A stretch of DNA of 64,000 nt from an uncultured Planctomycetales bacterium (GTDB lineage Bacteria > Omnitrophota > Gorgyraeia > Zapsychrales > JANLHA01). The first letter of the stretch is position 1. Each line of letters opens with the position of its first letter. The stretch is taken from NCBI GenBank assembly GCA_964489065.1, contig CAZAXH010000005.1, forward strand, positions 90,094-154,093, read 5' to 3'. Positions 3,920 through 29,228 of the stretch are shown here, one piece after another. The position numbers and the translations under genes were made by a program. The notes beneath the pieces are model-generated. The model was not told the origin of the DNA and searched no databases. It saw nothing but the letters and a program-made list of their open reading frames with translations.

Positions 3920-3957
3920 TTGTTTAAACATTCAGTCTGCCGCAAAGGAGTGAAGAG

Positions 3958-5797: not shown

Positions 5798-5873
5798 AAA
5801 AGGGATGGCCTATCGGCCCGGTGCTTAGGGAAGGTGCCGGCGGGAGAGCGGCGGGAAGACAAAGGAGGGGCCC

Positions 5874-7457: not shown

Positions 7458-7508
7458 TTTGTTTTAACCCAAAATCCGGCCCAACATTGAGATAGGCCCC
7501 GAGAAAAT

Positions 7509-8276
7509 ATGGGAAATAGCCCTTTGGACATAATGCTCCGACCCGCCATCACAGGGGGGGTGTTGGACTCTGTGAACCCGGGTTCCATGGCTTCCTGGTT
7601 GTTGCTTCTCATCGTCATGCTTCTGGCGGCCAAGCGATACGGAACGATGGCCCCGTACGGAATTTTATTCGTGGTCGGTGTTTTTTCGGCCAGGAGTATT
7701 ATTATCCCCGGGTTCTTGGACCGGTGGCTTCTCTCCCGCTGGTTCGAAGTGTTGCTTGAAGTCTGGTATTTTATTTTTTCCTTGGCCTGTTTGGTGATGG
7801 GGGGCCTTTTTTGGAGGGATTGGCGCTTATCCAAGAAAAGCGCCTTTGCGGGGGAATCCGTATTGTCTTATAAACGTTTGTTTGACGCCGGGGAGATCCC
7901 TCCTCCAACGCCTTTTTTAAAGAGAGAAAAGAAATGGCGGTGGCTGTTTTTTGTTACGTTGCGTGGTGTGGTGTCTTTATTTTTAGGGTGGCTGGCGGCG
8001 CTTCTTGCCAGTGCGTGGCCGGAAGATGGCTATTTCATTGTGATGCTTCTGTCCTGGGGTTCGGCTCAAAATTTTTCTAAAGTGTTTGCTATGGTGGAGT
8101 GCTACGCTTTTTTTTATGTCTTGCCGTTAATCCTGGTGTTTTTATTGACAGTGGTGATTTTCGGAGGGAAGAATGCTGCCGCATCGTTGCGCGCCCGTTT
8201 TTCTTGGGTGCAGATTTCGGCAGCGGCTTTGTTTTTAGGGTATGGAATTTCTTTCCTTTCTTATTATTTAAATTAA
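7509..8276 (+). CDS. Hypothetical polytopic membrane protein
   Basis: Multiple hydrophobic helices; no recognisable catalytic motif. Confidence 0.5.
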   Translation: MGNSPLDIMLRPAITGGVLDSVNPGSMASWLLLLIVMLLAAKRYGTMAPYGILFVVGVFSARSIIIPGFLDRWLLSRWFEVLLEVWYFIFSLACLVMGGLFWRDWRLSKKSAFAGESVLSYKRLFDAGEIPPPTPFLKREKKWRWLFFVTLRGVVSLFLGWLAALLASAWPEDGYFIVMLLSWGSAQNFSKVFAMVECYAFFYVLPLILVFLLTVVIFGGKNAAASLRARFSWVQISAAALFLGYGISFLSYYLN

Positions 8277-8291
8277 TCTAGGGAGTCGGGC

Positions 8292-9572
8292 ATGAATTTT
8301 GTGGTTGTGGGAGCTCAATGGGGGGACGAAGGTAAAGGGAAATTGATCGATTTCCTCTCGGATAAAGTGGATGTCACGGTCCGGTATCAGGGGGGGAATA
8401 ACGCCGGTCATACGGTTGTTGTTGACGACGAAGAATATATTTTCCATCTCTTGCCGTCTGCTATTCTGCATCAGAAGAAAGTTTGTGTGATCGCAAACGG
8501 GGTTGTGATTGATCCCCAAGCGTTGATTCAGGAAATCCGTGATTTAAAGAAAAGGGGAGTCGCGGTTAATGCCGATCAGTTGAAAGTCGCAGGCAATGCG
8601 CATGTTGTTATGCCCTATCACCGCATTTTAGATGGGTTGCGGGAGTCCAGACGGAATAATAAAATCGGCACGACGGGCCGGGGGATCGGCCCCTGCTATG
8701 CGGATAAATCGACTCGTTGCGGGATTCGCATGATTGACCTGATGAATGCCCGGGTTTTTAAATCCAAACTGGAGGATAATCTGCGGGAGAAAAATGAGAT
8801 TTTTAAAAAAGTGTACCGCCATCCGGAATATTCCTTGGAAGGCATTTATCATGAATATTTGCGCTTCGGGCGGCTTCTCAAACCCTATGTGTGCGATACG
8901 GCCATTTATCTTAATAGTGTGATTGAAAATAAAAAGACGATCCTTTTTGAGGGGGCCCAAGGGACGTTTTTGGATATTGATTTTGGAACCTATCCGTTTG
9001 TGACATCTTCTAACTCCATCGTCGGAGGGGTTTGCCCCGGCAGTGGGGTGTCCCCGACCAAAATCGATAAGGCGATTGCGGTCGTGAAAGCGTATACGAC
9101 CCGGGTGGGGGAAGGCCCGTTCCCAACGGAATTTGCGGCCCGGTTTATGGATACCTTCCGGCTTAAAGGAAAAGAATTCGGCGCCACAACAGGCCGGGCC
9201 CGGCGCTGCGGTTGGTTTGACAGCGTTCTGGTCCGTTACGCCCTGATGGTCAACGGGGTAAGCGAACTGGCCATCATGAAGCTGGATGTCCTGGACGGTT
9301 TGAAAAAAATAAAAATTTGCACCGCTTATAAATATCGGGGCCGGCTTATTAAAGATTTTCCTTTGGACTTGGAGGTTCTCTGCCGTGCGAAACCTGTTTA
9401 TGAAGATAGGGACGGCTGGCTTGAACCTTCCAAGGGTATTAAGAGGTTTGATGAGTTACCGATTCAAGCGAAAGCGTATTTACGTCGCCTGGAAGACCTC
9501 CTGAAAGTTAGGATTCGCTATATCTCAACCGGGTCGAAACGGGATGAAACCATTGTTTTGCCTGAATCATGA
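8292..9572 (+). CDS. purA: Adenylosuccinate synthetase
   Basis: QWGDEGKGK P-loop, GNNAGHT motif; 426 aa. Confidence 0.95.
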   Translation: MNFVVVGAQWGDEGKGKLIDFLSDKVDVTVRYQGGNNAGHTVVVDDEEYIFHLLPSAILHQKKVCVIANGVVIDPQALIQEIRDLKKRGVAVNADQLKVAGNAHVVMPYHRILDGLRESRRNNKIGTTGRGIGPCYADKSTRCGIRMIDLMNARVFKSKLEDNLREKNEIFKKVYRHPEYSLEGIYHEYLRFGRLLKPYVCDTAIYLNSVIENKKTILFEGAQGTFLDIDFGTYPFVTSSNSIVGGVCPGSGVSPTKIDKAIAVVKAYTTRVGEGPFPTEFAARFMDTFRLKGKEFGATTGRARRCGWFDSVLVRYALMVNGVSELAIMKLDVLDGLKKIKICTAYKYRGRLIKDFPLDLEVLCRAKPVYEDRDGWLEPSKGIKRFDELPIQAKAYLRRLEDLLKVRIRYISTGSKRDETIVLPES

Positions 9573-9637
9573 TGGCGGGAAAGAGGGGCCGTGAGCGGTA
9601 TTAAGTTATAAAATGACTAATGTTTATGAGAATATTC

Positions 9638-9666
9638 TTGACTTTAAAAATGGCATATGTTAATTT
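9638..9666 (+). promoter_or_regulatory. Sigma70-like promoter TTGACT-17-TAATTT upstream of OmpA-like lipoprotein gene
   Basis: Hexamers with 17-nt spacer ~25 nt upstream of RBS AAAGGAGGAGGG. Confidence 0.4.
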
Positions 9667-9689
9667 GAAAATCAAAAAAGGAGGAGGGC

Positions 9690-10346
9690 ATGCGCCATAA
9701 ATTTGTGATTTTTATAACTTATTTGGTTTTAAGCGTTTTTGCTGTCAGCCTGTCAGGGTGTACGGTGGTATTCCAGCGGGGACAGCGAAAAGATAACCAA
9801 AAAATCGTTTATCTTCAAAATGAATATTCGAAACTTCAGAATGAAATGTCCGAACTTGAGCGGGCCAAGATGGAGCTTGAAGACCGGCTGAGAAACGAGA
9901 TCGACGACCGGGAAGTTAAGGTGGAAATGTTGGACCGCGGGCTGGTCATCACGTTTGTGGCTGAGGTCTTATTTGATTCGGGCAAAGCCAATTTGAAGTC
10001 GGATGCTTTGAATAAACTGGAGCGCGTGGCGTCTGTTCTTAAAACCACGGTTGCGGATTTAAATATTGGCGTGGAAGGGCATACGGATAATGTGCCCATT
10101 AAATATTCAGGATGGAAATCCAACTGGGAGCTTTCTTCGGCCCGGGCCATGAGCGTCTTGCATTACATGGTTGACGATCTTGGAATAGAACCGGCCCGTT
10201 TATCGGCGACAGGGTACGGGGAGTATCATCCCGTGGCGGGCAATGATTCCCCGGAAGGACGGCAGAAAAACCGAAGGGTTGAAATCGTGATTTTGCCCAA
10301 GACAACCAAACAGGCATCCGGACAAGAGAGAGAAAACCTGAAGTAA
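9690..10346 (+). CDS. OmpA/MotB-family peptidoglycan-binding lipoprotein with coiled-coil linker
   Basis: Lipobox LSGC; OmpA_C motifs (..GHTDNVPI.., NWELSSARA, NRRVEIVI). Confidence 0.8.
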   Translation: MRHKFVIFITYLVLSVFAVSLSGCTVVFQRGQRKDNQKIVYLQNEYSKLQNEMSELERAKMELEDRLRNEIDDREVKVEMLDRGLVITFVAEVLFDSGKANLKSDALNKLERVASVLKTTVADLNIGVEGHTDNVPIKYSGWKSNWELSSARAMSVLHYMVDDLGIEPARLSATGYGEYHPVAGNDSPEGRQKNRRVEIVILPKTTKQASGQERENLK

Positions 10347-10371
10347 AAGCCGGGATAATTCATTTTAAAAA

Positions 10372-10773
10372 ATGGAGGAAAATGTGAAAAATATTACTGT
10401 GCCGGTTGCTGTTGCGATTGCGATTATTGGATGCGTTCTTGCCGTGAATGCCAGCGTCAATATGAGTCGGATTGATCAGGTCCTGGAGCAGGAGAGGTTC
10501 AACCGCCTTTCTGCTGAACAGAAACTGCAGACGGCTCAAAAAAATATAAAACAACTGGTTGCGGAGCTGGAAGATTCCCGCAAAAAGATTAAGAATATAG
10601 AAGATATTATCAATCAAGGACGGACAACAACGTCCGACCTTCAGGCGCAGCTCCAGAAGGAAGCTGAGGAAAAAGCCAAATTGATGGGACAGGTTCAGCA
10701 GCTTCAGCAGACCTTGGGTCAACTGGAACAAGCCAAAGATCAGATGACGGCGGCCCCCGCGGGGAACCAGTAA
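10372..10773 (+). CDS. Hypothetical membrane-anchored coiled-coil protein
   Basis: N-terminal TM segment then heptad-rich Q/E/K sequence; RBS AAATGGAGGAAAATG. Confidence 0.5.
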   Translation: MEENVKNITVPVAVAIAIIGCVLAVNASVNMSRIDQVLEQERFNRLSAEQKLQTAQKNIKQLVAELEDSRKKIKNIEDIINQGRTTTSDLQAQLQKEAEEKAKLMGQVQQLQQTLGQLEQAKDQMTAAPAGNQ

Positions 10774-10873
10774 AATGTGATCGGGAGATGATCCTGTTAG
10801 AGTGGCGCTCAATGGGGGATGAGATATCCCCCATTTTTTTAAGTTAGAGATATGTAGAATATGGATGTGAGGA

Positions 10874-11605
10874 GTGACCAGCTTTTTCGATAAAGACAAA
10901 TTGCCGCGGCATATCGCAATTATTATGGATGGCAATGGACGCTGGGCCAGGAGCAAAAAATTGCCCCGTTTCCGGGGGCATATGGAAGGCGTCAAGCGCA
11001 TAGAAGAGATTTCAGCGGCTGCCAATGATTTCGGCATTGAGGTGTTGACAATTTTTGCCTTTTCAACGGAGAACTGGCAGCGCCCCAAAAAAGAGGTGAC
11101 GATGCTCATCAATATGCTGAGCACGGTCTTGACTAAACGTCTGGACCGCCTGGTGGAAGGGAATATCCGCTTGCGCTTTATGGGGAAAAGGGATGGAATT
11201 CCGTCGGCGGTTTTGAAAACAGTTGACCGGGCGATGGAGAAGACCCGTAAGAACACGGGCCTGATTCTTAATCTGGCGTTTAACTACGGGGCGAGGCAGG
11301 AAATCGTTGATGCGTTTAAGCATCTCGCGGCGGAAGTTCAGAAAGGGCGCCTTTCCTTAGCGGATTTGGATGAAGGCCTGATCGGCAAGGCGTTGTATAC
11401 GTTTGATCTGCCGGATCCGGACTTGCTTATTCGCACTTCCGGCGAACAGCGGATCAGCAACTTTTTGTTATGGCAGCTGTCTTATTCGGAATTATATTTT
11501 ACGAATGTTTTCTGGCCGGACTTTACCAAGAAAGAACTGGAAAAGGCTTTGCGTGAATTCCAGAAGAGGGAACGCCGTTTTGGCAGTCTGACGGCCACAA
11601 AATAA
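10874..11605 (+). CDS. uppS: Undecaprenyl diphosphate synthase (GTG start inferred)
   Basis: HIAIIMDGNGRWA and cis-prenyltransferase motifs. Confidence 0.9.
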   Translation: MTSFFDKDKLPRHIAIIMDGNGRWARSKKLPRFRGHMEGVKRIEEISAAANDFGIEVLTIFAFSTENWQRPKKEVTMLINMLSTVLTKRLDRLVEGNIRLRFMGKRDGIPSAVLKTVDRAMEKTRKNTGLILNLAFNYGARQEIVDAFKHLAAEVQKGRLSLADLDEGLIGKALYTFDLPDPDLLIRTSGEQRISNFLLWQLSYSELYFTNVFWPDFTKKELEKALREFQKRERRFGSLTATK

Positions 11606-11629
11606 CAGGATATTTTCAGAAATCATCCT

Positions 11630-12445
11630 ATGTCCATGAGTCGCTTTTACAGTTCAGTTCTTATGATCGCCCTGATCAGCGCGGTCATCATGTACGACGC
11701 GTCTTTTTTGCTTATGGTGATGTTGCTCACGATCGGGGGGTTGTATGAATTTTTTTACATGATTCAGAAAAAGGGGATACCTATCTACAGTTATTTTGGC
11801 ATTATCATCGGCCTCTTGATCCCGATTTCTATTTACTGGAGAATGGAACTGACCCGGAATTTGGAGTTGCTTTTTATTGTCCTGGCGTTCCTTTCGGTCA
11901 TTATTTTGCAGTTTGCCCGTAAGGATAATACGAATGCGGTGGTTGGCCTGTCCACGACGATGTTTGGGATTTTTTATGTGTCCTGGCTGTTCAGCTTTGT
12001 GATTAAAGTGAGGTTTTTGGTGCCCGGCCTCGAGGGGGTTAAGCTGCTCGTGTTTATTTTGTTGGTGACGAAAATGGGTGACATCGGAGCCTTGTTGGTG
12101 GGGAGCCGGTATGGGAAACATCCCCTTTTGCCCAGGGTGAGCCCTAAAAAATCTGTCGAGGGGTGTTTGGGAAGTTTCCTTTTTAGTATTATAACCGCGG
12201 TTGTCAGTCAACCGTTGTTGCCTGCCGCAGTTCAATTTTCCTTTTGGAAGATCGTGCTGATGGGGGCTTTTTTTGGCGGGATCGGTCAGTTAGGGGACCT
12301 GTCTGAATCTCTCATGAAGAGGGATTGTAACGTGAAGGATTCCGGGAATCTGCTGCCAGGAATGGGGGGGGTTCTGGACATGATTGACAGTCTGCTTTTT
12401 TCGGTCCCGGCCTTTTACTTATTTATGAGCGCGGCTTTGAATTAA
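11630..12445 (+). CDS. cdsA: Phosphatidate cytidylyltransferase
   Basis: Polytopic membrane protein with CTP-transferase signature (..SPKKSVEG..); uppS-cdsA-dxr-rseP synteny. Confidence 0.85.
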   Translation: MSMSRFYSSVLMIALISAVIMYDASFLLMVMLLTIGGLYEFFYMIQKKGIPIYSYFGIIIGLLIPISIYWRMELTRNLELLFIVLAFLSVIILQFARKDNTNAVVGLSTTMFGIFYVSWLFSFVIKVRFLVPGLEGVKLLVFILLVTKMGDIGALLVGSRYGKHPLLPRVSPKKSVEGCLGSFLFSIITAVVSQPLLPAAVQFSFWKIVLMGAFFGGIGQLGDLSESLMKRDCNVKDSGNLLPGMGGVLDMIDSLLFSVPAFYLFMSAALN

Positions 12446-12511
12446 GGCTGGTCTGCCCCCAAAGGCAAAGGCCGAATTCCACGGCGGATTCAGCGGAGTC
12501 CCTGACAAAAT

Positions 12512-13696
12512 ATGCTCCACGACATAAGAAGAATTGCTGTCCTGGGATCGACGGGATCCATAGGCATTAATACGTTGAAGGCTGTTGACCATTACCCTGA
12601 ACGCTTTAAGGTCGTTGGGCTGAGTGCGCTGAACAACCACGAACTTTTACTCGCTCAGGCCAAGCAGTATCACCCGAAATATATCGGGATCCGCCGGGAG
12701 AAAATCGGCCTTTTAAAAAAAAGTTTAAATGAAACCTCCTTGAAGATCCTGGATGCTGAATCCGAGTTGTCCTGGCTCGTTTCCCGGCCGGATATTGATA
12801 TTGTGGTGATCGGCATGAGCGGCAGCGCGGCCTTGGAACCGTTTTTAAGCGCGGTGAGAGCCGGCAAGCGGGTTGCTCCGGCGAATAAAGAGGCGCTTGT
12901 GATCGCCGGGGATATTATTATGAGGGAAGCGGCTGAACACGGGGCCGAGGTTATTCCGGTTGATTCTGAACAAAGCGCCGTGTTCCAGTGTTTGGCCGGT
13001 GGCCGGAGGAAGGATTTGCACAAGGTTTATTTAACCGCTTCCGGGGGGGCGTTAAGGCGCATCCCGGCCCGGCGGTTTGCGGCCTTAGGGGTCAGCGATA
13101 TCCTGAATCATCCGCGCTGGAAAATGGGAAAGAAGATCACCGTAGATTCAGCGACGCTTATGAATAAAGGGTTTGAGGTGATTGAAGCCCAGCGTTTGTT
13201 CGGCTTGAAGGTGGAGGAGATCGAAGTGGTCATCCATCCGGAAGCGGTTATTCATTCCATGGTGGCGTTTCAGGATGGATCGGTTATCGCTCAGTTGGGC
13301 ATTCCGGATATGCGTTTGCCCATTCAATACGCTCTCACATATCCGGAAAGAAAAGGCACGGGGCTGAAGCCTTTGGATTTTTTGGCCACGAAACGGCTGA
13401 CGTTTGAAAAGCCGAATTTAAAAAAATTTCCATCATTAGCTCTGGCCGTCGAAGTGGCCGGCCGGGGAGGAACACTGCCGAGCGTCCTGAATGCGGCTGA
13501 CGAAGAGGCCGTACAGGCATTTTTGGATGAGAAGATCCCGTTTACCGGGATATATAATATAGTGGAAAAGATTGTCACGAGTCATATAATAGTAGGAAAT
13601 CCAGGGATCCCGGATATCCTGTCGGCCGATGCGTGGGCCCGTCAGGAAGCCCGCAAGAGGATTCTTGATTTTAAATCTTACAAGCAAATATTTTAG
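12512..13696 (+). CDS. dxr: 1-deoxy-D-xylulose 5-phosphate reductoisomerase
   Basis: ILGSTGSIG NADPH-binding motif, full-length 394 aa. Confidence 0.95.
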   Translation: MLHDIRRIAVLGSTGSIGINTLKAVDHYPERFKVVGLSALNNHELLLAQAKQYHPKYIGIRREKIGLLKKSLNETSLKILDAESELSWLVSRPDIDIVVIGMSGSAALEPFLSAVRAGKRVAPANKEALVIAGDIIMREAAEHGAEVIPVDSEQSAVFQCLAGGRRKDLHKVYLTASGGALRRIPARRFAALGVSDILNHPRWKMGKKITVDSATLMNKGFEVIEAQRLFGLKVEEIEVVIHPEAVIHSMVAFQDGSVIAQLGIPDMRLPIQYALTYPERKGTGLKPLDFLATKRLTFEKPNLKKFPSLALAVEVAGRGGTLPSVLNAADEEAVQAFLDEKIPFTGIYNIVEKIVTSHIIVGNPGIPDILSADAWARQEARKRILDFKSYKQIF

Positions 13697-13757
13697 GAGC
13701 CATGGCCTGGGCGCGCAGAATGGATGCTGGGCTGGATAAAACAGAGGTGGGGTTATA

Positions 13758-15113
13758 ATGGATATTATTATATTTTTGGCCGTTTTGAGTGTTTTGGTTA
13801 TTGTGCATGAATGGGGCCATTTTTTTACCGCCAAGTCCTTGGGTGTCGTGGTAGAAAAATTTTCCGTGGGCTTTGGCCCAAAGCTGTTTTCCCGCCAGCA
13901 TAAAGGGACGGAGTTTTTGGTCAGCGCGATTCCCCTTGGCGGATATGTCAAGATGGCTGGTGATGACCGGAACGATTGCAAGGGAACCGCGGGCGAGTTT
14001 TTTTCCCACCCGTTGGGGCATCGCGCTTTGATCGTTTTGATGGGTCCGGTCGTGAATTTTATTTTCGCGTTTATCTGCCTTGTGGTTATTTTCATCGCCG
14101 GCTTTCCCGGTGCCTCGACCGATATTATGGCTGTCAAGGAAAGCGGGGCGGCTCAGGCGGCGGGACTCCGCCCAGGGGATAAAATCCTGGCGGTCAATTC
14201 CCGGAAAATTTATGGGCAGGGGCATTTGGATAGACTTCTTAGGGCGCCGTTGCAGGTGCCTTTACAGATTTTGGTTCAGCGTGGGGACGCTTTGATTCAG
14301 CTGCCCGTGACGCCCCCGCGGAATAGGGTGGAGAATGAATTCGGGGAAGAAGAGCCCATTTTTGATCTTGGGGTTGATTACATCGGCAATGAGGTGGGGT
14401 GGTTGGCGGAAGGAGCTCCCGCGCAGGCGGCTGGATTAAAAGAAGGCGATAAAATCGTCGATATTAATGGGACCGTGATTCATGGCTGGTCGGATATTCA
14501 GGATAATATCCGGCACTCAACGGCCGAAACCCTGCTTTTGACATATGTGCGCAATGGGGAAAAGATAACGGTTCATGTTAGCCCGCGCGTTGAAACATTT
14601 AAAAATAAGGATGGGAAGGAAGAAGAAATCAGAATGATTGGCGTTGGGCCGACCCAGCAGATTGAAACGTACCGGTTCGGGATGGTTGACTCTGTCCGAA
14701 ATGCCGGGTCGGAACTTGTCAATATCATAACGCTGACTTTGAAAACTCTCGGAAAAGTGGTGACCGGTTCTCTTTCCGCCAAACGGGCCATCGGCGGGCC
14801 GATCCGTATCTTTTCGGTTGTGAGCAACGCCGCGGCCATGGGGGTTCTTAGCCTGATTTACGTTATGGCGGTTATCAGCGCAAGTTTGGCGCTGTTTAAC
14901 CTTTTCCCCGTCCCTGTTTTGGACGGGGGGCATATCTTCCTTTGCTTAATAGAAAAAATGCGCGGCCGTCCCTTACCCTTGAAATGGGAAGAGAACCTGA
15001 ATAAAGCCGGGTTCACGGCCTTGATGGTCCTGATGGCGTTTGTGATTTATAACGACATCGTGGAGGTGGGGCTGCTGAAGAAAATATCGGATCTGGTCGC
15101 CCAAATAAGATGA
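13758..15113 (+). CDS. rseP: RIP zinc metalloprotease RseP (site-2 protease) with PDZ domains
   Basis: HEWGHF zinc motif in first TM, PDZ segments, LDGG motif. Confidence 0.9.
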   Translation: MDIIIFLAVLSVLVIVHEWGHFFTAKSLGVVVEKFSVGFGPKLFSRQHKGTEFLVSAIPLGGYVKMAGDDRNDCKGTAGEFFSHPLGHRALIVLMGPVVNFIFAFICLVVIFIAGFPGASTDIMAVKESGAAQAAGLRPGDKILAVNSRKIYGQGHLDRLLRAPLQVPLQILVQRGDALIQLPVTPPRNRVENEFGEEEPIFDLGVDYIGNEVGWLAEGAPAQAAGLKEGDKIVDINGTVIHGWSDIQDNIRHSTAETLLLTYVRNGEKITVHVSPRVETFKNKDGKEEEIRMIGVGPTQQIETYRFGMVDSVRNAGSELVNIITLTLKTLGKVVTGSLSAKRAIGGPIRIFSVVSNAAAMGVLSLIYVMAVISASLALFNLFPVPVLDGGHIFLCLIEKMRGRPLPLKWEENLNKAGFTALMVLMAFVIYNDIVEVGLLKKISDLVAQIR

Positions 15114-15154
15114 GATCAACGGCGGGATGACATGGGGAACAAAAGGAGAAGGTC

Positions 15155-16426
15155 ATGATTGAAGACACCGAACTAAAGGAAGTAGTTCACCGTTACCTGA
15201 TTCAGAAAACAGATTTTTTAAAGGTTAAAGATAAGATGAACGAGGATCAGCTGCGGGTTTATGTTGACAAGGCGATTACGGATGTTTGTTACGATGAGCA
15301 GCTTGAAATCACCATGGAGCAGCGCATCCGTCTGATACGCGAAATGGTCGGCGCCGTCGTGGCTTTGGGGCCGCTGCGCCCTTTGATGGAAGATAAGTCT
15401 ATCACGGAAATTATGGTGAATGGGGCGCATCAGATTTTTATCCAGCGTGGCGGCCGGATTGTCCTGTCTGACGTTAAATTCGAGCATAACGAGCATTTGA
15501 CCCACACGATCCAGAAGCTTTTGAACAGCTCGGGAACCAACCGGCGCGTAGATGAGTCCAACCCGTACGTCGACTTCCCTCTTCCCGACGGGACCCGGTG
15601 TAACGTCATTTTGCCTCCCTGTTCCCTGGTCGGGCCAGTCATGACGATTCGTAAATTCGCCGATATTTCCACGATTGATGACGTGTTGAGGTTAAAAATG
15701 CTTGATAACAACATCGCCACCTTCCTGAGCGGGACGATGAAGGCGAAGCATAATATTGTCTTCTGCGGGGCGACCGGTACCGGTAAAACGACGCTGCTCA
15801 ACGTCCTTTCCCGGCATATCGACGAAGAAGAGCGGATTATCACCATTGAGGATACCCCGGAGTTGCGGCTGAAACAGGAGCACGTCGTGACCCTGCAGGC
15901 CAAGATGGCCAACGTGGAAGGGAAAGGGGCCATCACCATCCGGGATCTTTTCGTTAACTCCCTGCGTATGCGCCCTGACCGGCTGATCATCGGGGAAGTC
16001 CGTTCCGATGAAATGCTGGATTTGATTGAGTCTATCGCTTCCGGGCACTCCGGGTCGCTGGCTATCGTTCACGCGGAATCCCCGGAAGACTGTTTTTCCC
16101 GTATGACCACGATGATGCTTATGACCGGGATTAAACTTGATACCCGGATTATCGAAAAACAGATCGCTCGCGCGATCGATTTGATCGTGCATATTATCCT
16201 TTACCCGGATGGTGTCCGGCGGGTGACAAACGTGACCGACGTCTCCTGGGACGAAGAAAGGGAGAAGCCCGTCATGCAGGACATCTTTACTTTTACGAGG
16301 GACCGGATCACTGAGGAAGGGAAAATCGAAGGGCACTGGGAGATGAACCGTTCCACTCCGGCCTGTTATACGAAATTTGTTAAAAAGAACATTAAATTGC
16401 CCCCGGGATTTTTTGATAAAATGTAA
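15155..16426 (+). CDS. CpaF/TadA-family type II/IV secretion system ATPase (orphan; no cognate pilus/secretion genes in window)
   Basis: Walker A GATGTGKTT, Asp box, Walker B and His box typical of VirB11/CpaF; N-terminal CpaF-like domain. Confidence 0.85.
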   Translation: MIEDTELKEVVHRYLIQKTDFLKVKDKMNEDQLRVYVDKAITDVCYDEQLEITMEQRIRLIREMVGAVVALGPLRPLMEDKSITEIMVNGAHQIFIQRGGRIVLSDVKFEHNEHLTHTIQKLLNSSGTNRRVDESNPYVDFPLPDGTRCNVILPPCSLVGPVMTIRKFADISTIDDVLRLKMLDNNIATFLSGTMKAKHNIVFCGATGTGKTTLLNVLSRHIDEEERIITIEDTPELRLKQEHVVTLQAKMANVEGKGAITIRDLFVNSLRMRPDRLIIGEVRSDEMLDLIESIASGHSGSLAIVHAESPEDCFSRMTTMMLMTGIKLDTRIIEKQIARAIDLIVHIILYPDGVRRVTNVTDVSWDEEREKPVMQDIFTFTRDRITEEGKIEGHWEMNRSTPACYTKFVKKNIKLPPGFFDKM

Positions 16427-16462
16427 TTTTTTAACGTTAAAGTGCGGAGAGAAAGGGTGATT

Positions 16463-17737
16463 ATGCGCTGGACACAGACTCTAATACCAACACTGAAGGA
16501 GACCCCGGTCGGAACGGAAGCCGTGAGTCATCAGTTGCTTTTAAGGGCCGGGCTCGTCAATATGCTGACTTCGGGGGTTTATTCGTATCTGCCTCTGGGG
16601 TTAAAGGTGTTGCGCCGCATTGAAGCGATTATCAGGGAAGAAATGAACGCGGCTGGCGCCAGGGAGCTTTTTTTGCCCTGCTTACAGCCCTTGGAATTGT
16701 GGAAGCAGACGGGTCGGGATCAAACATTGAAAGAGATTATGATCCGGTTTAAGGATAACCGGGGCCGGGAGATGTGCCTGGGGCCGACGCATGAGGAGGT
16801 GATTACCGACTTGGCCAAAAATTATGTGCAGTCATACCGTCAACTTCCGCTGACATTGTATCAGATTCAGACCAAATTTCGGGATGAGCTCCGGACGCGT
16901 TTCGGTATTGTGCGCGCCTGTGAATTCATCATGAAAGACGCCTACAGTTTTGACCGTGATTTTGCGGGGCTGCAACAGGTTTATCAAAAGATGTATAGCG
17001 CCTATCAGAATGTGTTTAAGCGATGCGGAGTGGATGTCCACATTATTGCCGCGGATTCCGGAGCCATGGGCGGGGATGTCTCTCATGAGTTTCTGGCCCT
17101 GGCCCCGATCGGGGAGGACGAGGTGGCTTTGTGCGGCGGCTGTGGCTTTGCCGGTGCGGGGTCGATTTTGACGGAAAGCGGCGGGACGTGTCCGTCCTGC
17201 GGGAAGCTGTTGACAAAGCAGGTTGCGATTGAATTGGGGCATATTTTTCAATTGGGGACAAAATACAGCCAGTCGCAGGGGGCCATGTTCCTGGATGAGG
17301 ACGGAAAACTGAAACCCATGGTTATGGGATGTTACGGCATCGGTGTCAGCCGGCTCATCGCCGCGGTGGTTGAAAAAAATTATGATGAACAGGGCATTGT
17401 CTGGCCGCGGGAAGTTTCTCCGTACGATGTGGAAATCCTGCCGCTGACCGGTGAGGACGAAGAAGGCCTGGCCTTGGCGCGGGAATATGCGGACATGTTG
17501 GAGCAAGACCGTTTTGACGTGCTGGTGGATGACCGGGCGGAAAGTCCGGGGCGTAAATTTCATGACGCCGATTTGATCGGGATTCCCTATCGTTTGATTC
17601 TTGGGGTGCGGGGTTTGAAAGAGGGTGTCGTGGAGCTTAAGGAACGCAAGTCGGGCCGGGTGCAAAAAATTAGGAAAGAAGATGTCCGTCAGCGGCTGCC
17701 GGGCATCCTGCACAATGGTTTTTCGGAGAAGGATTGA
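16463..17737 (+). CDS. proS: Prolyl-tRNA synthetase, short form lacking the INS editing domain (alt. upstream start 16442)
   Basis: Class II aaRS motifs, ProRS anticodon-binding domain; 425-431 aa. Confidence 0.9.
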   Translation: MRWTQTLIPTLKETPVGTEAVSHQLLLRAGLVNMLTSGVYSYLPLGLKVLRRIEAIIREEMNAAGARELFLPCLQPLELWKQTGRDQTLKEIMIRFKDNRGREMCLGPTHEEVITDLAKNYVQSYRQLPLTLYQIQTKFRDELRTRFGIVRACEFIMKDAYSFDRDFAGLQQVYQKMYSAYQNVFKRCGVDVHIIAADSGAMGGDVSHEFLALAPIGEDEVALCGGCGFAGAGSILTESGGTCPSCGKLLTKQVAIELGHIFQLGTKYSQSQGAMFLDEDGKLKPMVMGCYGIGVSRLIAAVVEKNYDEQGIVWPREVSPYDVEILPLTGEDEEGLALAREYADMLEQDRFDVLVDDRAESPGRKFHDADLIGIPYRLILGVRGLKEGVVELKERKSGRVQKIRKEDVRQRLPGILHNGFSEKD

Positions 17738-18216
17738 AGATGCTGGAAGACATGGAAGCACGGGTTAAGGCATGCTTGAGACCGCTTCTGGAAGAGAGCG
17801 GGGCGGACTTGGTGGAGTTAAAAGTTAAACGGGCTCAACGGCAGGTAATTATTCGGGCGTTGGTGGACCTGCCGGAAGGCGGCATTACGATCGGTCAGTG
17901 CAGCCGGATGAATAAGCAATTGGGCCGGCAGATTGCCGAGGAAGGAATCATAGACGGCGATTATTCTGTTGAAGTCTGCTCCCCGGGGATCGATTGGCCG
18001 CTTGTGGACGAGAAGGATTTCAGGCGCGTCCGGGGCAGGCTAGTTCACGTTGTGCTGGCGGAACCCTTGGAGGGGCGCCAGGACATTGCTGGCCGGGTGA
18101 TGGGGGTTGAGAAGGAGAGCGTGTGTATCGAAATAGACGGAGCGTTGAGAGACATTCCGTTGAGACAAATTAAGAAAGCAAATCAAATGCTCGCAGAAGG
18201 GAAAGGACATGGATAA
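17734..18216 (+). CDS. rimP: Ribosome maturation factor RimP
   Basis: RimP fold pattern, position upstream of nusA-infB. Confidence 0.85.
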   Translation: MKMLEDMEARVKACLRPLLEESGADLVELKVKRAQRQVIIRALVDLPEGGITIGQCSRMNKQLGRQIAEEGIIDGDYSVEVCSPGIDWPLVDEKDFRRVRGRLVHVVLAEPLEGRQDIAGRVMGVEKESVCIEIDGALRDIPLRQIKKANQMLAEGKGHG

Positions 18217-19438
18217 CAGAGAGTTGCTGGCTATTTTAGACCAGTTGGAAAGAGACAAGGGTATTAATAAAAACGTTTTGATTGAGGCGGTTGAAGCGGC
18301 GGTGGCTTCTGCGGCGAAGAAAATCTGGACTGTCGACAGCCTGGAGGAGATTAAAGTCGTCATTAATCGTAAGACCGGAAAACTGACGGCCTATGCCGGT
18401 GAGCACGAGATCCGTTCGAGTGAGTTCGGGCGCATCGCGGCCCAGACAGCCAAGCAGGTTGTCATTCAAAAAATCCGGGAAGCGGAAAAAGACGTTGTGT
18501 ATCAGGAGTATCAGAACCGGATCGGCCAGATTATTTCCGGGGGGGTTTACCGTTTTGAGAAAGGCAATATCATCGTCGACCTGGGGAAGTCCGAAGGGTA
18601 TCTGCCTAAAAGCGAAATATCGGGCAAAGAAGAATTCAAACAGGGAGACCGGATCCGGGCGTACGTCCTGGACGTCACCCGGGAGGCCAAGGGGCCGCAG
18701 ATTATTTTGTCCCGGGCTAATCCTAACTTTGTGAAGAGGCTTTTTGAACTGGAGGTCCCGGAGATTTATGAAGGGATTGTCGAGATCAAGTCCATCTCCC
18801 GCGCCGTCGGAGAACGGACAAAGATCGCCGTTTATTCAAAGGACGAGAAGGTGGATTGTGTCGGTGCCTGTGTGGGGATGCGCGGGGCGCGGGTCAAAAA
18901 TATCGTCAACGAACTTCAGGGGGAGAAGATCGATATCGTCCGTTATTCGAATGATATTAAGGAATATATCCAAGCGGCTTTATCTCCGGCCGAAATCTCC
19001 CAGATTCAGATCAACAGTGAGGATAAGAAAGCAAATTTGATTGTTGCGGATGATCAGCTTTCTCTGGCTATTGGGAAAAGAGGGCAGAACGTCCGTTTGG
19101 CCAGCGAATTGGTGGGCTGGGAGTTGAATATTTTTACGGCGGAACAATGGGCTAGTCAACAGGAGCCGCCTCCGGCTGAAGAACCAGTTTTGCTACCGGA
19201 AGGAAAGAATGCAACGGCGGAGCCGGAGCCTAAAAGCGAAGAACGGGTTTCGGAATTAACTCAACTCAAAGGAGCCGGGCCCAAGGTTATTCAGGCCCTT
19301 GAGGACGCGGGGTTCTTGACGATAGCAAGCATTGCCGCGGCTGTTCCTGACGATTTGACACCTATCAAAGGTTTGGGTAAAATCAAGGCGGAAAGACTTA
19401 TCGAAGAGGCTAAATCCCTTACGGGACAGGATAAATAA
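18209..19438 (+). CDS. nusA: Transcription termination/antitermination factor NusA
   Basis: S1, KH1/KH2 (GxxG) domains; 409 aa. Confidence 0.95.
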   Translation: MDNRELLAILDQLERDKGINKNVLIEAVEAAVASAAKKIWTVDSLEEIKVVINRKTGKLTAYAGEHEIRSSEFGRIAAQTAKQVVIQKIREAEKDVVYQEYQNRIGQIISGGVYRFEKGNIIVDLGKSEGYLPKSEISGKEEFKQGDRIRAYVLDVTREAKGPQIILSRANPNFVKRLFELEVPEIYEGIVEIKSISRAVGERTKIAVYSKDEKVDCVGACVGMRGARVKNIVNELQGEKIDIVRYSNDIKEYIQAALSPAEISQIQINSEDKKANLIVADDQLSLAIGKRGQNVRLASELVGWELNIFTAEQWASQQEPPPAEEPVLLPEGKNATAEPEPKSEERVSELTQLKGAGPKVIQALEDAGFLTIASIAAAVPDDLTPIKGLGKIKAERLIEEAKSLTGQDK

Positions 19439-19472
19439 ATATCATACTGGTCACGAGACGTTAGGAAAGAAC

Positions 19473-21917
19473 ATGCATGTTTTCGAATTAGCGGATGAGT
19501 TGCAGATAAGTAATGAGGCAGTTTTAAAAAAGCTCAAGGCGTTGAAACTCAAGGCCAAAGATGGAGATCAGGTCTTGAATAAAGCGGTGATTATTGTTTT
19601 GCGTAGCGAGCTTAAGAAAGATATGCAGGACCCGGAGAAAATGCGCCGGTTCCGCCTGCAGAGGAAACAGGAACAGGAACGGAAGAACGCGCCTCCGGAG
19701 CCGCCGTCTCCTCCTGTGGTACCCCCACCCCTGCCAGAGGTTTCGACGGAAGATATTAAACCGGCGGAGGAGCCAACGGTTGAAGAGAAACCTGCCCGTA
19801 AGAAGGCCCCTCCGAGGAAGACTACGGCGAAGGCTAAAACCGGAACTGTGAAAACTAAGGCGGCGGATCAGGAAAAGGAACCGCGGGTTAAGCCGGAGCC
19901 TAAACAGCCGGAAAAACCCCGTAAGACGAAAACCAAAGTCAGCGATGCACCTTTTGTCCCGCTGAAACCTTTGGCAAAAAAGAAACGCAAGCTGCCATCT
20001 GGGAAAATATCCCAAGACGGCAGTCTGGATAACAAAGGTTATTTTAGTCGTAGAAAAAGCGGGCTTGAGCAGGAAGATGGTTTTGATGTTGCGGTTCAGG
20101 AAACAACACTGCATACCACCGAACCTTCGGAGATGGTGGCGCCGCCTATAGCGGAGCTTGTGGATTTAGAGTTGAGGATCCCCATCTCGGTTAAGGATTT
20201 TTCCGTCCGGATTCAGCAGAAGACCAGCGTGGTTTTGAAAAAGCTGCTGCAAATGGGTATTATCTGCAATATTAATCAGAACCTGGATGAGGATGTGGTC
20301 CGTCGTTTGGCTGTGGATTTCGGTTATAACATTACGAAGATGAAGACGCAGGAGGAGCAGCTGATCGAGACTCATCATAAAGAGGAAGAGGACCAGAAAT
20401 TGCTTCATCCTCGCGCCCCGGTTATTACGTTTATGGGGCATGTTGATCACGGGAAAACATCCTTGTTGGACAGGATCCGTAAGAGTCAGATCGCCGATTC
20501 GGAACACGGCGGTATTACGCAGCATATCGGTGCCTATTCGGTCAAACTGCCTAAAGGCAGGATCACGTTTCTTGACACTCCGGGGCACGAGGCCTTTACG
20601 GCCATGCGGGCCCGGGGGGCGCATATCACAGACTTGGTCGTCCTGGTTGTGGCCGCGGATGAAGGGGTCATGCCGCAGACCGAGGAAGCTATTGCCCATG
20701 CGCAGGCGGCGGGTGTGCCGATTGTCGTTGCGTTGAATAAAATTGACCGGCGCAACGCGGACCCGGACCGGGTAAAAAAGGAACTGGCCGATCGCGGGTT
20801 CACTCCGGAAGACTGGGGCGGTAAGACAATTGTCGTCGGTGTTTCTGCTGTGACGGGGGAAGGTGTTGATAAATTGCTGGAAATGATCCTGCTGGAAGCG
20901 GAAATGCTGGAACTGAAGGCTAATAAGGATAAAGATGCGTCTGGCATTGTCGTGGAAGCGCATATGAGCCGGGGGAAGGGGGCGGTCGCCAGCCTGATCG
21001 TGCAAAGCGGGACCCTCCGCCTGAATGATATTATCGTCGTGGGGGCTTTTTACGGGAAGGTGAAAGCGATGTTCGACGACCAGGAACAGTCTATAAAAGA
21101 AGCCGGCCCCTCTATGCCGGTTGAAGTCCTGGGCTTGCCGGGGGTTCCCGAGGCGGGCGAACGTTTTTACGTGCTCCAGGATGAGAAACAGGCGCGGGAG
21201 ATTACATCTTTGCGCTCGGAACAGCTCAAGAACGAAAAACTTCTCGCATCGTCCGGCCGGGTCACGCTGGAGGATTTGTATGCCAAGATCCAGGAAGGCA
21301 GCATCAAGGAGCTGAACGTTATCCTGAAAGCCGACGTCCAAGGGTCCGTGGAAGCCCTGAAAGATTCCCTGGAGAAAATCCCCAGCAGTGAAGTGAAAGT
21401 GAAATTTATTCATGCCGGTGTTGGGGATGTCAATGCCTCGGATGTTATTTTAGCGGTCGCGTCCAATGCGATCATCATCGCGTTTCACGTCGGTATCGGA
21501 CCGAAAGCGGCTGAAGAGCTGGAAAAACAGCCGGTGGATGTCAGGCAGTACCGGATTATTTATGATGCGGTGAATGATGTCCGCAAAGCTTTGGAAGGGA
21601 TGCTGGCCCCGAAGATGAAGCGGCGGGACCTCAGCCAAATTGACGTCCGGCAGGTTTTTAAACTCAGTAAATCCGGAACGATCGCCGGCTGTTACGTTTC
21701 TAAGGGGAAAGTGACCCGGAAGGCGAGCATCGAGGTGGTCCGGAACGGCGAGGTCATCTTCTCCGGCAGCATCAGCTCTTTGAAGCGTTTTAAGGATGAC
21801 GTGCGGGAAGTGTCCGAGGGGTATGAATGCGGTATTTCTATTACGAATTTCGATGCGTTTGAGCCTGGTGATAAGCTTATGACGTTTGAAATCGAGTCGA
21901 TCGCTAGAAAGTTGTAA
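19473..21917 (+). CDS. infB: Translation initiation factor IF-2
   Basis: G domain GHVDHGKTS, DTPGH, NKID; 814 aa with Lys/Pro-rich N-terminal region. Confidence 0.95.
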   Translation: MHVFELADELQISNEAVLKKLKALKLKAKDGDQVLNKAVIIVLRSELKKDMQDPEKMRRFRLQRKQEQERKNAPPEPPSPPVVPPPLPEVSTEDIKPAEEPTVEEKPARKKAPPRKTTAKAKTGTVKTKAADQEKEPRVKPEPKQPEKPRKTKTKVSDAPFVPLKPLAKKKRKLPSGKISQDGSLDNKGYFSRRKSGLEQEDGFDVAVQETTLHTTEPSEMVAPPIAELVDLELRIPISVKDFSVRIQQKTSVVLKKLLQMGIICNINQNLDEDVVRRLAVDFGYNITKMKTQEEQLIETHHKEEEDQKLLHPRAPVITFMGHVDHGKTSLLDRIRKSQIADSEHGGITQHIGAYSVKLPKGRITFLDTPGHEAFTAMRARGAHITDLVVLVVAADEGVMPQTEEAIAHAQAAGVPIVVALNKIDRRNADPDRVKKELADRGFTPEDWGGKTIVVGVSAVTGEGVDKLLEMILLEAEMLELKANKDKDASGIVVEAHMSRGKGAVASLIVQSGTLRLNDIIVVGAFYGKVKAMFDDQEQSIKEAGPSMPVEVLGLPGVPEAGERFYVLQDEKQAREITSLRSEQLKNEKLLASSGRVTLEDLYAKIQEGSIKELNVILKADVQGSVEALKDSLEKIPSSEVKVKFIHAGVGDVNASDVILAVASNAIIIAFHVGIGPKAAEELEKQPVDVRQYRIIYDAVNDVRKALEGMLAPKMKRRDLSQIDVRQVFKLSKSGTIAGCYVSKGKVTRKASIEVVRNGEVIFSGSISSLKRFKDDVREVSEGYECGISITNFDAFEPGDKLMTFEIESIARKL

Positions 21918-22017
21918 CGCCTTGGGGTGTCTTCTCAAAAAAATCCTCGGATGAGATACCGGCCCAGCCGTGTTTCTTGTCATGAACTCATTATCTAATA
22001 TCCGGCAGACATCGGTT

Positions 22018-23001
22018 ATGAAGAAAACAATATTCAGCGGTATGCGCCCGACGGGAAAGTTGCACCTGGGGCACCTTGTGGGCGCCCTGCAGAACTGGAC
22101 GCAGCTTCAGGACCAGTACCATTGTGTTTACTGCATCGTGGACTGGCACGCTTTCATGGGGGAATATGAAAACAGCGGCCCTATCCGGGGCCACATTTTC
22201 GATATGGCCGTGGATTGGATGGCGTGCGGGATTGACCCGGAGCGCTCGATCGTATACGTCCAATCCCAGGTGCCGGAGCACGTGGAGCTGCATATGATCT
22301 TTTCCTGCCTGACACCTTTGGGCTGGCTGGAGCGGAATCCGACTTACAAAGAGCAACTCCGGGAGATCACGGCGCGTGATTTGCAGACGTATGGGTTTCT
22401 GGGATATCCGGTCCTGCAGGCGGCCGATATTTTGCTTTATAAAGCGGACGCGGTCCCGATCGGGGAAGACCAGCTGCCTCATGTCGAGCTGACGAGGGAG
22501 ATCGCCCGCAGGTTTAATTTTCTTTATAAAAAGGATGTGTTTGCCGATTGTGCCGCGATCCTCACGGAGACGCCGCGGCTGCTGGGGATCGACGGGAGGA
22601 AAATGAGCAAGAGTTATTTTAACGCGATCAACCTGTCGGATTCGGCGGCGGAAGTGAAAGAAAAAGTGAGGCAGATGATCACCGATCCGCAGCGAATCCG
22701 GAAGTCGGATCCCGGCCGGCCGGAGCAGTGTAACATTTACAGTTATTATAAAGTGTTTGCGCCGGAACTGGCTCAGGACGTGTCGGCCTGGTGCACTCAG
22801 GCCCTGAAGGGGTGCACGGAGTGTAAGGCCAACCTATCGGATTGCCTCCTGAAGCGGCTGGCGCCTATTCAGGAAAAGCGGGCGGAGCTCCTTCGGGACA
22901 AAGAGCGCATTCCCGCTCTTCTTCAGGAAGGCCAGCGCAAGGCCCAGGCGATTGCCCACCGGACTCTTCAGGAAGTTAAGGAGGTCATATTCCCGTTATG
23001 A
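22018..23001 (+). CDS. trpS: Tryptophanyl-tRNA synthetase
   Basis: Class I HIGH-like (GKLHLGH) and KMSKS motifs. Confidence 0.9.
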   Translation: MKKTIFSGMRPTGKLHLGHLVGALQNWTQLQDQYHCVYCIVDWHAFMGEYENSGPIRGHIFDMAVDWMACGIDPERSIVYVQSQVPEHVELHMIFSCLTPLGWLERNPTYKEQLREITARDLQTYGFLGYPVLQAADILLYKADAVPIGEDQLPHVELTREIARRFNFLYKKDVFADCAAILTETPRLLGIDGRKMSKSYFNAINLSDSAAEVKEKVRQMITDPQRIRKSDPGRPEQCNIYSYYKVFAPELAQDVSAWCTQALKGCTECKANLSDCLLKRLAPIQEKRAELLRDKERIPALLQEGQRKAQAIAHRTLQEVKEVIFPL

Positions 23002-23795
23002 GTTATAAACTGAAGCTTGATATCTTTGAAGGCCCCTTGGACCTGCTGCTGTATTTGATCAAAAAGAACGATATCAACGTTTACGATATTCCTATCGCCA
23101 AGATTACCGATCAATATATGGAGTATATCGAGATGATGAAGCTGCTTGATCTGGAATTCGTTGGGGATTTCTTGGTTATGGCCGCTACGCTGATGCAGAT
23201 CAAATCCCGTATGCTTTTGCCACCGGATCCGTCTCAGGAAGAGGAGGAGGCCGATCCCCGGGACGAACTGGTCCGCAAGCTTCAGGAATATAAGGTTTTT
23301 AAAGAGATTGCGGATCACCTTAAAACCATGGAAACCGAACGCCAGAAACTGTTCCCGCGCAAAATGGATGAAGACCTGCTGAAAGAGATGGAAGAGGAGA
23401 GCAAGGAAGTGTATTTTGAGGCGAGCCTTTTCGATTTGATTAACGCGTTCACGAAAGCCTTAAACCGTTTCAAGGAATCCCCGGTTTATGAGGTCAGGCC
23501 GGAAGAGTTCACGGTGGAGCAGAAGATTCATGATATCTTGCATGCCTTGTTGCGGCAGCCCCGTGTTCTGTTAACGGAATTCTTTGTTAATACGTCCAGT
23601 AAAATGGAAGTGATCGTGACGTTTATGGCGATCCTGGAACTGATCCGCCTTCGGGAAATCAAAGTGATGCAAAAACGTTTGTTTTCGGATATCGAAGTTT
23701 TTCGTAATCTGGAGAAAGAGGCCGCCGTCACGCCTCCGGATAATCCGGCCGGTTCTTCTCCGGAATCAGCCCCGGACCCTGAACCGGCGGCATAA
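22998..23795 (+). CDS. scpA: Segregation and condensation protein A
   Basis: ScpA N-terminal pattern (LDIFEGPLDLLLYLI); 4-nt overlap with trpS stop. Confidence 0.85.
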   Translation: MSYKLKLDIFEGPLDLLLYLIKKNDINVYDIPIAKITDQYMEYIEMMKLLDLEFVGDFLVMAATLMQIKSRMLLPPDPSQEEEEADPRDELVRKLQEYKVFKEIADHLKTMETERQKLFPRKMDEDLLKEMEEESKEVYFEASLFDLINAFTKALNRFKESPVYEVRPEEFTVEQKIHDILHALLRQPRVLLTEFFVNTSSKMEVIVTFMAILELIRLREIKVMQKRLFSDIEVFRNLEKEAAVTPPDNPAGSSPESAPDPEPAA

Positions 23796-23798
23796 ATC

Positions 23799-24845: not shown

Positions 24846-24868
24846 TCCCCGAACGCGGGAGCATTTCC

Positions 24869-25075
24869 ATGGCACGGATATTATTTTTTACTGCAGCGTG
24901 CTTCTTCCTGGCGGGCCTTTTGGCGTTGATTTTTGAGAAGGTCCCCGGGCTGGGGCGCCTCCCGGGAGATATCGTCGTTAAAAAAGGGAACTTCACGTTT
25001 TACGCGCCGTTAACGACATGTCTCCTGCTCAGCGGTATCATCACAGTTGTTTTAATGTTGATCAGGAGGCCTTAA
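24869..25075 (+). CDS. Small membrane protein, DUF2905 family
   Basis: Two TM helices flanking GDIVVKKGNFTFYAP motif typical of DUF2905. Confidence 0.55.
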   Translation: MARILFFTAACFFLAGLLALIFEKVPGLGRLPGDIVVKKGNFTFYAPLTTCLLLSGIITVVLMLIRRP

Positions 25076-25079
25076 CATC

Positions 25080-27376: not shown

Positions 27377-29228
<1,852 letters not shown>

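Follow-up and report, generated by a model that had tools for sequence, protein, structure and literature searches.

The Tad pilus is distinguished by a single bifunctional motor, and how one ATPase both extends and retracts the filament is an active question (PMC6920026; Whitfield 2026, bioRxiv). In Caulobacter, CpaF alone drives both extension and retraction (PMC6920026), and D208 in loop-8 together with EGSG 331-334 in the central loop are essential and are predicted to contact CpaG and CpaH (Hohl 2024, PMC11300603). A retracting CpaF is proposed to flip and engage the platform by its C-terminal face, R387 being required for retraction (Whitfield 2026, bioRxiv). For Omnitrophota, the Tad pilus is the leading candidate for a device of predation or attachment (PMC10066038). 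Here we describe a CpaF/TadA-type ATPase gene encoded between rseP and proS on a 64,000-nt stretch of contig CAZAXH010000005.1 (hereafter the window), and the lineage of ATPases encoded upstream of proS, A1, to which it belongs. Across the omnitrophotan class Velamenicoccia, a group of tiny predatory or parasitic bacteria, there are two or three CpaF paralogues, one or two of them locked in the proS operon, which is a new form of a known family and no new machine.

By both sequence and predicted structure the window ATPase is of the CpaF/TadA type, and not a PilB, PilT, GspE, VirB11 or FlaI. It matches Pfam T2SSE (PF00437) at 168 bits (cutoff 24.9, E 3.2e-49) over residues 72-346, and its nearest solved structure is C. 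crescentus CpaF (E 6.6e-84, residues 47-399 aligned), with VirB11 (1e-33), FlaI (9e-31) and PilT (1e-7 or weaker) as weaker relatives. The top NCBIfam model is the TadA-family TIGR03819 (273.7 bits, E 2e-81), which nevertheless stays under its cutoff of 373.15; the models for VirB11 (TIGR02788, 202.3 bits against a cutoff of 249.95) and TrbB (161.6 bits against 304.55) also fall below theirs, and the FlaI model scores lower than the TadA-family model and is likewise sub-cutoff. The hallmarks of TIGR03819, the "helicase/secretion neighbourhood" ATPase, are a DEAH helicase gene next door and a setting of the conjugation type; A1 has neither. AlphaFold2, given 33 orthologues, produced a model (pLDDT 82.6) that retrieved CpaF (8rjf, 9e24 and 8rkd) as its top Foldseek matches over about 410 of 423 residues or columns (E 4e-39), with FlaI (5e-25), archaeal GspE and VirB11 as runners-up. 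In the same model, helices 4-18, 21-27, 30-47 and 54-69 precede the first beta-sheet and would form an N-terminal helical domain. The catalytic residues K211, E232/D233, D275/E281/R283 and H298/H306 are present and are invariant across 41 A1 sequences.

The original prediction had named this gene a complete Tad/Flp-pilus-type ATPase with a Walker A motif (GATGTGKTT), Asp and His boxes and a CpaF-like N-domain. The open reading frame (ORF), the PF00437 hit and the CpaF match all agree with that description, and the helical domain ahead of N2D in the AlphaFold2 model fits the proposed N-domain. The truncated or inactive protein that the prediction had allowed for is not what we see: the ORF runs the full 423 aa with catalytic motifs intact by sequence. 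Like Caulobacter CpaF, A1 has an N-terminal helical domain (as modelled), N2D and C-terminal domain in that order, the same catalytic motifs, the loop-8 Asp and the EGxG loop. In contrast, A1 has no N-terminal disordered extension and is not encoded with cpaB-cpaC-cpaE-cpaG-cpaH-pilA, and the window protein has GATG in place of GGTG, a Thr after the Asp box, SGHSGS in place of NTGHDGS, and a Glu for Arg387.

Homologues of the ATPase bear Omnitrophota names. The named orthologues (Zapsychrus exili, RIFCSPHIGHO2_02_FULL_48_11, GWA2_47_8 and the "Kpj58rc" contig) belong to the class Velamenicoccia (GTDB Koll11), order Zapsychrales, per Table S1 of Seymour et al. 2023 (PMC10066038). At least 17 loci from three orders have an A1-lineage ATPase directly upstream of proS (Table 1). 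In every locus with a downstream flank (16/16) proS lies immediately 3' of A1, and all 16 loci with an upstream flank have rseP or rseP-ispG on the 5' side. Genome contigs were scanned with an orthologue alignment and the generic pattern LRMRPDR[IL]I, which gave at least two close orthologues as well as L008, L010 and the Tad-locus paralogues discussed below. A scan of metagenome contigs with the generic pattern ERI[IV]TIED returned ordinary CpaFs at 79 of 80 loci, L090 alone being useful. The order Gygaellales was assigned via RIFCSPLOWO2_01_FULL_41_12. An apparent gap in identity (at least 61% versus at most 47%) was considered as a discrete family boundary and set aside as partly a sampling effect, since the best 120 matches were listed.

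The complete genome of Velamenicoccus archaeovorus LiM (L168; CP019384.1, 337.5-358.8 kb) is 45% identical to the window in the ATPase, 57% in proS, 58% in nusA and 45% in dxr. The GC and third-position GC (GC3) contents of the ATPase gene match those of neighbouring genes, its nonsynonymous divergence from L001 (dN = 0.057) is the lowest among the nine genes of the block, and mean column identity over 33 orthologues is 72%. For selection we relied on dN because the synonymous rate (dS) is saturated and dN/dS is unreliable. A divergence in step with the neighbours, a native GC content and the lowest dN point to vertical inheritance under strong constraint. The linkage of A1 to proS is of ancient date and has passed by vertical descent through at least three orders of Velamenicoccia. 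The original prediction had described the ATPase as inserted between rseP and proS. It was right about the position; a local insertion event does not hold, the arrangement being class-wide in 17 loci. The rseP-cpaF-proS order is kept in relatives, with ispG intervening after rseP in the Gygaellales and Velamenicoccales types. A GTDB representative contig among these relatives, L008 (CAYYFL010000001.1), goes under the name "uncultured Planctomycetia bacterium", probably in error, as it agrees with V. archaeovorus in both its gene order and its ATPase.

The place of A1 in the family was assessed with a distance-based (neighbour-joining) tree of 122 ATPases (415 columns, 200 bootstraps). All ATPases encoded upstream of proS form a single clade (200/200), distinct from the fusions of TadZ to CpaF that are found in Tad loci and that form a clade of their own (200/200); this is the family-tree placement that the original prediction had proposed as a check. 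The ATPases encoded downstream of proS, A2, also form their own clade (200/200), which groups as the sister of A1 in 57% of replicates. The other CpaFs sampled all fall outside A1 and A2, and nearly all of them have TadB/TadC adjoining: T2SSF adjoins the ATPase in 69 of the 86 CpaF loci surveyed. The clade is also marked by its motifs. Its Walker A reads G[A/S]TGxGKTT against the canonical GGTGSGKTT, its Asp box IEDT against IED[A/S], and its His-box context SGHxG[S/A]LA against NTGHDGS. The Asp-box Thr (Thr234 in the window protein) is found in 120/120 and 119/120 clade members versus 4/68 canonical ATPases.

In genomes of the Velamenicoccales type, the gene between proS and rimP encodes A2, a CpaF-like ATPase of about 420 aa. 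A2 is more degenerate than A1, with an H-to-R change in the His box and a D-to-S/T change in loop-8, and given these substitutions A2 may be catalytically or functionally altered, or may be a partner subunit of A1.

Tad loci are present elsewhere in the phylum, and four of them were examined (L086, L077, L074 and L036). Their gene order is a peptidyl-prolyl isomerase (PPIase), CpaB/RcpC, a secretin with a TonB_C domain, a fusion of ParA-like TadZ to CpaF of about 717 aa, DUF192 and an array of Flp-like pilins. The layout they share is unusual in its SurA-like PPIase, its fusion of secretin to TonB_C and a 510-570-aa unannotated protein after DUF192; the pilins comprise 4-7 tandem Flp-like genes with G/xxxxEY sites. 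Each of the four loci (4/4) encodes a T2SSE ATPase of its own as a fusion with TadZ. The Tad-locus paralogues of L036, L074 and L077 are about 40% identical to the window ATPase, and the fusions 38-39%. The fusions (P0212 and P0121) resemble A1 in coming from the same phylum, in at least two cases from the same genome, and in having an intact T2SSE core; they differ in carrying an N-terminal ParA/MinD-like TadZ domain and in lying between the secretin and the DUF192 and Flp pilin genes. No T2SSF platform and no prepilin peptidase were detected within 10 kb of any of the four loci, and a custom T2SSF hidden Markov model (HMM), Pfam, and hhalign comparison of the unannotated 279-800-aa neighbours with T2SSF were all negative for a platform. 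With no T2SSF within 10 kb of the Tad loci, dispersal of Tad genes is normal in this lineage.

The two kinds of motor occur together. The 3,360,633-bp contig ctg38531l (ERZ21862645) encodes P0001, a 92%-identical orthologue of the window ATPase, at 2.24 Mb and, 0.94 Mb away at 1.30 Mb, the fusion P0212, which was found by a profile search with TadZ::CpaF fusions. Both ATPase kinds (P0326 and P0182) are also held by the metagenome-assembled genome (MAG) RIFCSPLOWO2_01_FULL_41_12. In V. archaeovorus, A1 and A2 lie at about 347-351 kb, more than 300 kb from a Tad complex at 12-30 kb reported as "complete" by Seymour et al. (PMC10066038). The original prediction had raised the possibility of a Tad locus elsewhere whose ATPase slot is empty. 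We found the opposite, loci that hold their own TadZ-fused ATPase, and with such a motor already present at a distinct Tad locus, A1 is an additional motor rather than a displaced sole one.

Platform-contact residues were compared by phmmer alignment to 8rkd. D133 of the window protein is equivalent to Caulobacter D208 on the extension face and is an Asp in 41/41 A1 and 68/68 canonical ATPases; E255, G256 and G258 of the EGxG loop are invariant in every group compared. The original prediction had left two options, partner genes encoded far away or co-option for a non-pilus function, and the invariance of the platform-contact motifs favours the former, though it is no proof. With the catalytic residues and both contact motifs kept, A1 has most likely retained its docking on a GspF-type platform. 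In contrast, the position equivalent to R387 is an Arg in 61/68 canonical Tad-locus ATPases and in 0/131 window-type sequences. Since this Arg is always missing from Zapsychrales A1, the protein looks like an assembly-only (single-orientation) motor under the inversion model.

Within the window, almost every one of the larger ORFs was scanned with Pfam, and only housekeeping families came up, with no type IV secretion system (T4SS) or mobile-element genes near the ATPase. Custom HMMs for T2SSF/TadBC, TadZ/CpaE, CpaB/RcpC and secretin were built on genes that adjoin the ATPase in canonical CpaF loci, with PF00482 serving to validate the one for T2SSF; they gave no matches among six-frame ORFs of at least 70 aa. 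A motif scan for Flp/type-IV prepilins likewise gave none in the window, where the same scan on true Tad loci finds 4-7 pilins. About 5.5 kb past the 3' end of the window, housekeeping genes are found as well. The earlier claim of a lone Tad gene in 64 kb is upheld by these three kinds of scan.

The gene order around the ATPase is purA-OmpA-coiled coil-uppS-cdsA-dxr-rseP-ATPase-proS-rimP-nusA-infB-trpS-scpA-ruvB (serC, serA, purA and uppS through ruvB were named by synteny and BLAST to L001, using precomputed Pfam labels). The proS gene starts either at GTG 16442, 15 nt past the ATPase stop, or at ATG 16463, 36 nt past it with a GGAGAG Shine-Dalgarno sequence. A strong terminator-like hairpin upstream of uppS (Table 1) probably bounds the ATPase transcription unit on its 5' side, and no comparable plus-strand terminator was found from uppS to infB, the ATPase-proS gap included. 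The short intergenic gaps, the Shine-Dalgarno sequences and the lack of a terminator make co-transcription of the ATPase with the housekeeping genes plausible. On the other side of the hairpin, an OmpA-family lipoprotein-like gene and a gene for a 133-aa coiled-coil protein (9690..10835) form a pair conserved 5' of uppS in all relatives, and the pair terminates in the hairpin.

The reading we prefer, which we regard as an evenly balanced proposition, is that A1 is a working motor of the CpaF type, catalytically competent and of the hexamer kind, that docks on a platform encoded elsewhere, is additional to the TadZ-fused motor and is expressed constitutively with core genes. A1, an old paralogue lineage, is fixed in the uppS-cdsA-dxr-rseP-(ispG)-A1-proS-(A2)-rimP-nusA-infB region of Velamenicoccia, where envelope and translation genes would be expressed along with it. 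It would power the assembly of a Tad-type filament from a GspF-type platform, with labour possibly divided between it and the TadZ-fused motor.

Several points weigh against this reading. TadB/TadC, prepilin peptidase, pilin, secretin or TadZ genes are linked to A1 in 0/17 loci, and no platform gene was located for A1 genomes in a search that covered the A1 loci and the Tad loci with 10 kb on either side. Canonical Tad systems use one bifunctional CpaF (PMC6920026), so a second motor is without precedent. Co-transcription of the ATPase is inferred from sequence only. The Arg at the R387-equivalent position is not uniform, being present in 34/120 other A1 sequences (Velamenicoccales- and Gygaellales-type) and in 27/120 TadZ::CpaF fusions. 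These larger samples refuted an idea that we had entertained, namely that a missing Arg387 is a whole-clade trait with a complementary Arg in the fusions; with the residue mixed in the other A1 subclades and in the fusions, its absence is a subclade trait and no rule. Lastly, genome 231 is a 93%-complete MAG of family 4484-171, a family in which Seymour et al. report no Tad complexes (PMC10066038), and in the portion of their KEGG orthology (KO) data used here (Source Data Figs 3-5; genomes 58, 221 and 231) it has K02283 (cpaF) without the KOs for CpaB, CpaC, CpaE, TadB and TadC. If that K02283 gene is A1, then A1 outlives the Tad system.

The main rival, possible in our view yet doubtful, is that A1 has been co-opted, acts without a platform and drives no pilus, serving instead envelope biogenesis (RseP/IspG) or translation and transcription (ProRS/RimP/NusA/IF2). 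A strict class-wide linkage to proS with a Tad gene adjacent in 0/17 loci speaks for such a role, although the place of a gene in an operon is by itself a weak guide to what it does. A1 evolves no faster than the neighbouring housekeeping genes, it has clade-specific changes around Walker A, the Asp box and the His box, and a partly degenerate A2 has been added across proS in some lineages. The cpaF KO of genome 231, in a family described by Seymour et al. as Tad-less, would also fit if that gene is A1. However, the loop-8 Asp and the EGxG loop are invariant in A1 although platform contact is their only known role, and the model shares with CpaF its fold, the order of its domains and the helical domain at its N-terminus. 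To our knowledge no member of the CpaF/TadA family acts without a GspF-type platform. Should A1 do so, this would be a new function for the family, and A1/A2 would be a platform-independent hexamer or hetero-hexamer with a core cellular role.

The preferred reading, in which A1 docks on a platform as an additional motor, can be extended to a multi-motor Tad system in Velamenicoccia, where the fusion, A1 and, if present, A2 would all act on a single TadB/TadC platform, each with its own part of the task. We consider this extension unlikely; it would be the first such system. For instance, the unfused Zapsychrales A1 would only assemble the filament, with retraction or positioning left to another paralogue. 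With a motor gene kept in the proS/nusA/infB operon, the power of the pilus would be coupled directly to growth state in these obligately host-dependent nanobacteria. A parallel is offered by dual-motor type IV pili (PilB/PilT in type IVa pili (T4aP), BfpD/BfpF in type IVb pili, and MshE/PilT), where each filament system likewise has two or more ATPases of the PilT/VirB11 class and the extension and retraction motors are predicted to engage one platform by opposite faces (Whitfield 2026, bioRxiv). In those systems, the motors are distinct, long-separated subfamilies, and the retraction motors lack N1 and carry an AIRNLIRE motif; in contrast, the Velamenicoccia paralogues are all CpaF-type and a functional split between them is only proposed.

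It is improbable that A1 is an accessory or alternative motor on the PilC/GspF platform of a T4aP or a type II secretion system-like machine beside giant ORFs. T4aP and GspF-domain proteins are common in Omnitrophota, GspF-type genes flank the giant ORFs of the phylum (bioRxiv 2026.06.07.730766), and pilB, pilC, pilD, pilM and pilT are listed for genome 231 in the portion of the KO data used here. A T2SSG/N-methyl pilin gene lies about 9 kb upstream of A1 in L169, but it is not conserved in other A1 loci. Moreover, the proteins closest to A1 are without exception CpaFs from Tad loci with adjoining TadB/TadC, and A1 resembles PilB, PilT and GspE far less.

A simple relocation, in which A1 is the sole Tad ATPase of its genome and has moved out of a now ATPase-less Tad locus, is very improbable and was rejected. 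A1 is the sole Tad-type gene in the window, as relocation would have it, but the four Omnitrophota Tad loci keep TadZ-fused T2SSE ATPases of their own, a 92%-identical relative carries both genes on one contig, A1 and the fusions are separate clades (each 200/200), and V. archaeovorus combines A1 and A2 with a distant Tad locus reported as complete (Seymour et al.). Least credible of all, and excluded by synteny and phylogeny, is a recent horizontal insertion or decaying mobile or conjugative remnant (VirB11/TrbB-like), for which the sub-threshold NCBIfam matches to VirB11 and TrbB could be cited, but every conjugation model falls under its cutoff, no T4SS or mobile genes are near, the composition is native, the position predates the divergence of the orders and purifying selection is strong.

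Neither the survey of Omnitrophota in PMC10066038 nor bioRxiv 2026.06.07.730766 mentions the A1-proS arrangement or analyses TadA/CpaF, and a full-text literature search for orphan or paralogous CpaF returned nothing comparable. As Tad systems are described as single-motor (PMC6920026, PMC12019362), the class-wide set of CpaF paralogues is new. The retraction-face residue varies naturally among the Velamenicoccia paralogues, which offers a comparative test of the inversion and division-of-labour models. We would also like to note that surveys scoring Tad from K02283/cpaF will count the proS-linked paralogue even where there is no Tad machine.

Table 1. Features of the window and of the related loci compared with it.
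Feature	Sequence or locus	Position	Strand	Remarks
CpaF/TadA-type ATPase gene (A1)	window	15155..16426	+	423-aa ORF, ATG start, uninterrupted; proS-linked clade member
Shine-Dalgarno-like AGGAGA	window	15144..15149	+	5 nt before ATPase ATG; read from sequence
VDES, residues 132-135	window	15548..15559	+	contains loop-8 D133; phmmer alignment to 8rkd
Walker A GATGTGKTT, residues 205-213	window	15767..15793	+	
Asp box IEDT, residues 231-234	window	15845..15856	+	
EGKG central/pore loop, residues 255-258	window	15917..15928	+	equivalent to Caulobacter E331-G334
Walker B DRLIIGE, residues 275-281	window	15977..15997	+	catalytic Glu281; invariant
His box SGHSG (in SGHSGS), residues 296-300	window	16040..16054	+	H298 retained
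P310-E311	window	16082..16087	+	equivalent to Caulobacter P386-R387, Glu in place of Arg; phmmer alignment to 8rkd
rseP (M50 site-2 protease, PDZ domains)	window	13758..15113	+	upstream neighbour, 41 nt before ATPase start
proS (minimal ProRS)	window	16442..17737	+	downstream neighbour
Strong terminator-like hairpin	window	10811..10835	+	11-bp stem and T run, upstream of uppS
Window-type loci (61-92% identity)	window, L001, L002, L003/L006, L004, L005, L007, L090			rseP-ATPase-proS
Gygaellales-type loci (42% identity)	L010, L169			rseP-ispG-ATPase-proS
Velamenicoccales-type loci (45% identity)	L008, L167, L168, L170-L173			rseP-ispG-ATPase-proS-second ATPase-rimP
A2	L168 (CP019384.1)	12632-13897		
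A2	L008	12671-13936		
A2	L170	10530-11792		
A2	L171	10581-11846		
A2	L172	8740-10002		
A2	L173	8539-9801		
Omnitrophota Tad locus	L086	5851-19788		
Omnitrophota Tad locus	L077	5608-17417		
Omnitrophota Tad locus	L074	91-14034		
Omnitrophota Tad locus	L036	5276-11552		

Other features of the window were observed along the way. The proS product is about 424-431 aa long, and its orthologues match only the class II core and anticodon-binding domains, without the INS editing domain or the C-terminal domain; for a ProRS lacking the INS domain, editing may rely on trans factors. A single ORF at 1240..2091 contains LptC and LptA/LptD_N-type domains, an apparent LptC-LptA fusion, and lies directly upstream of an ABC-transporter ATPase gene that is probably lptB. 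About 60 of the 66 ORF calls in the window (1..64000) are on the plus strand. GC skew is positive throughout (+0.06 to +0.21) save at 46-48 kb, where the sign turns negative at a FIST-domain gene on the minus strand (46249..47439). The tryptophan genes fall into separate groups within 42799..53878, with trpG-trpD-trpC-trpF at 42799..45922, trpB at 51808..52995 and trpA at 53063..53878. Between trpF and trpB lie the FIST gene, genes for an M20 peptidase, DUF3108 and a PD40/TolB-like beta-propeller, and an unassigned 178-aa ORF.

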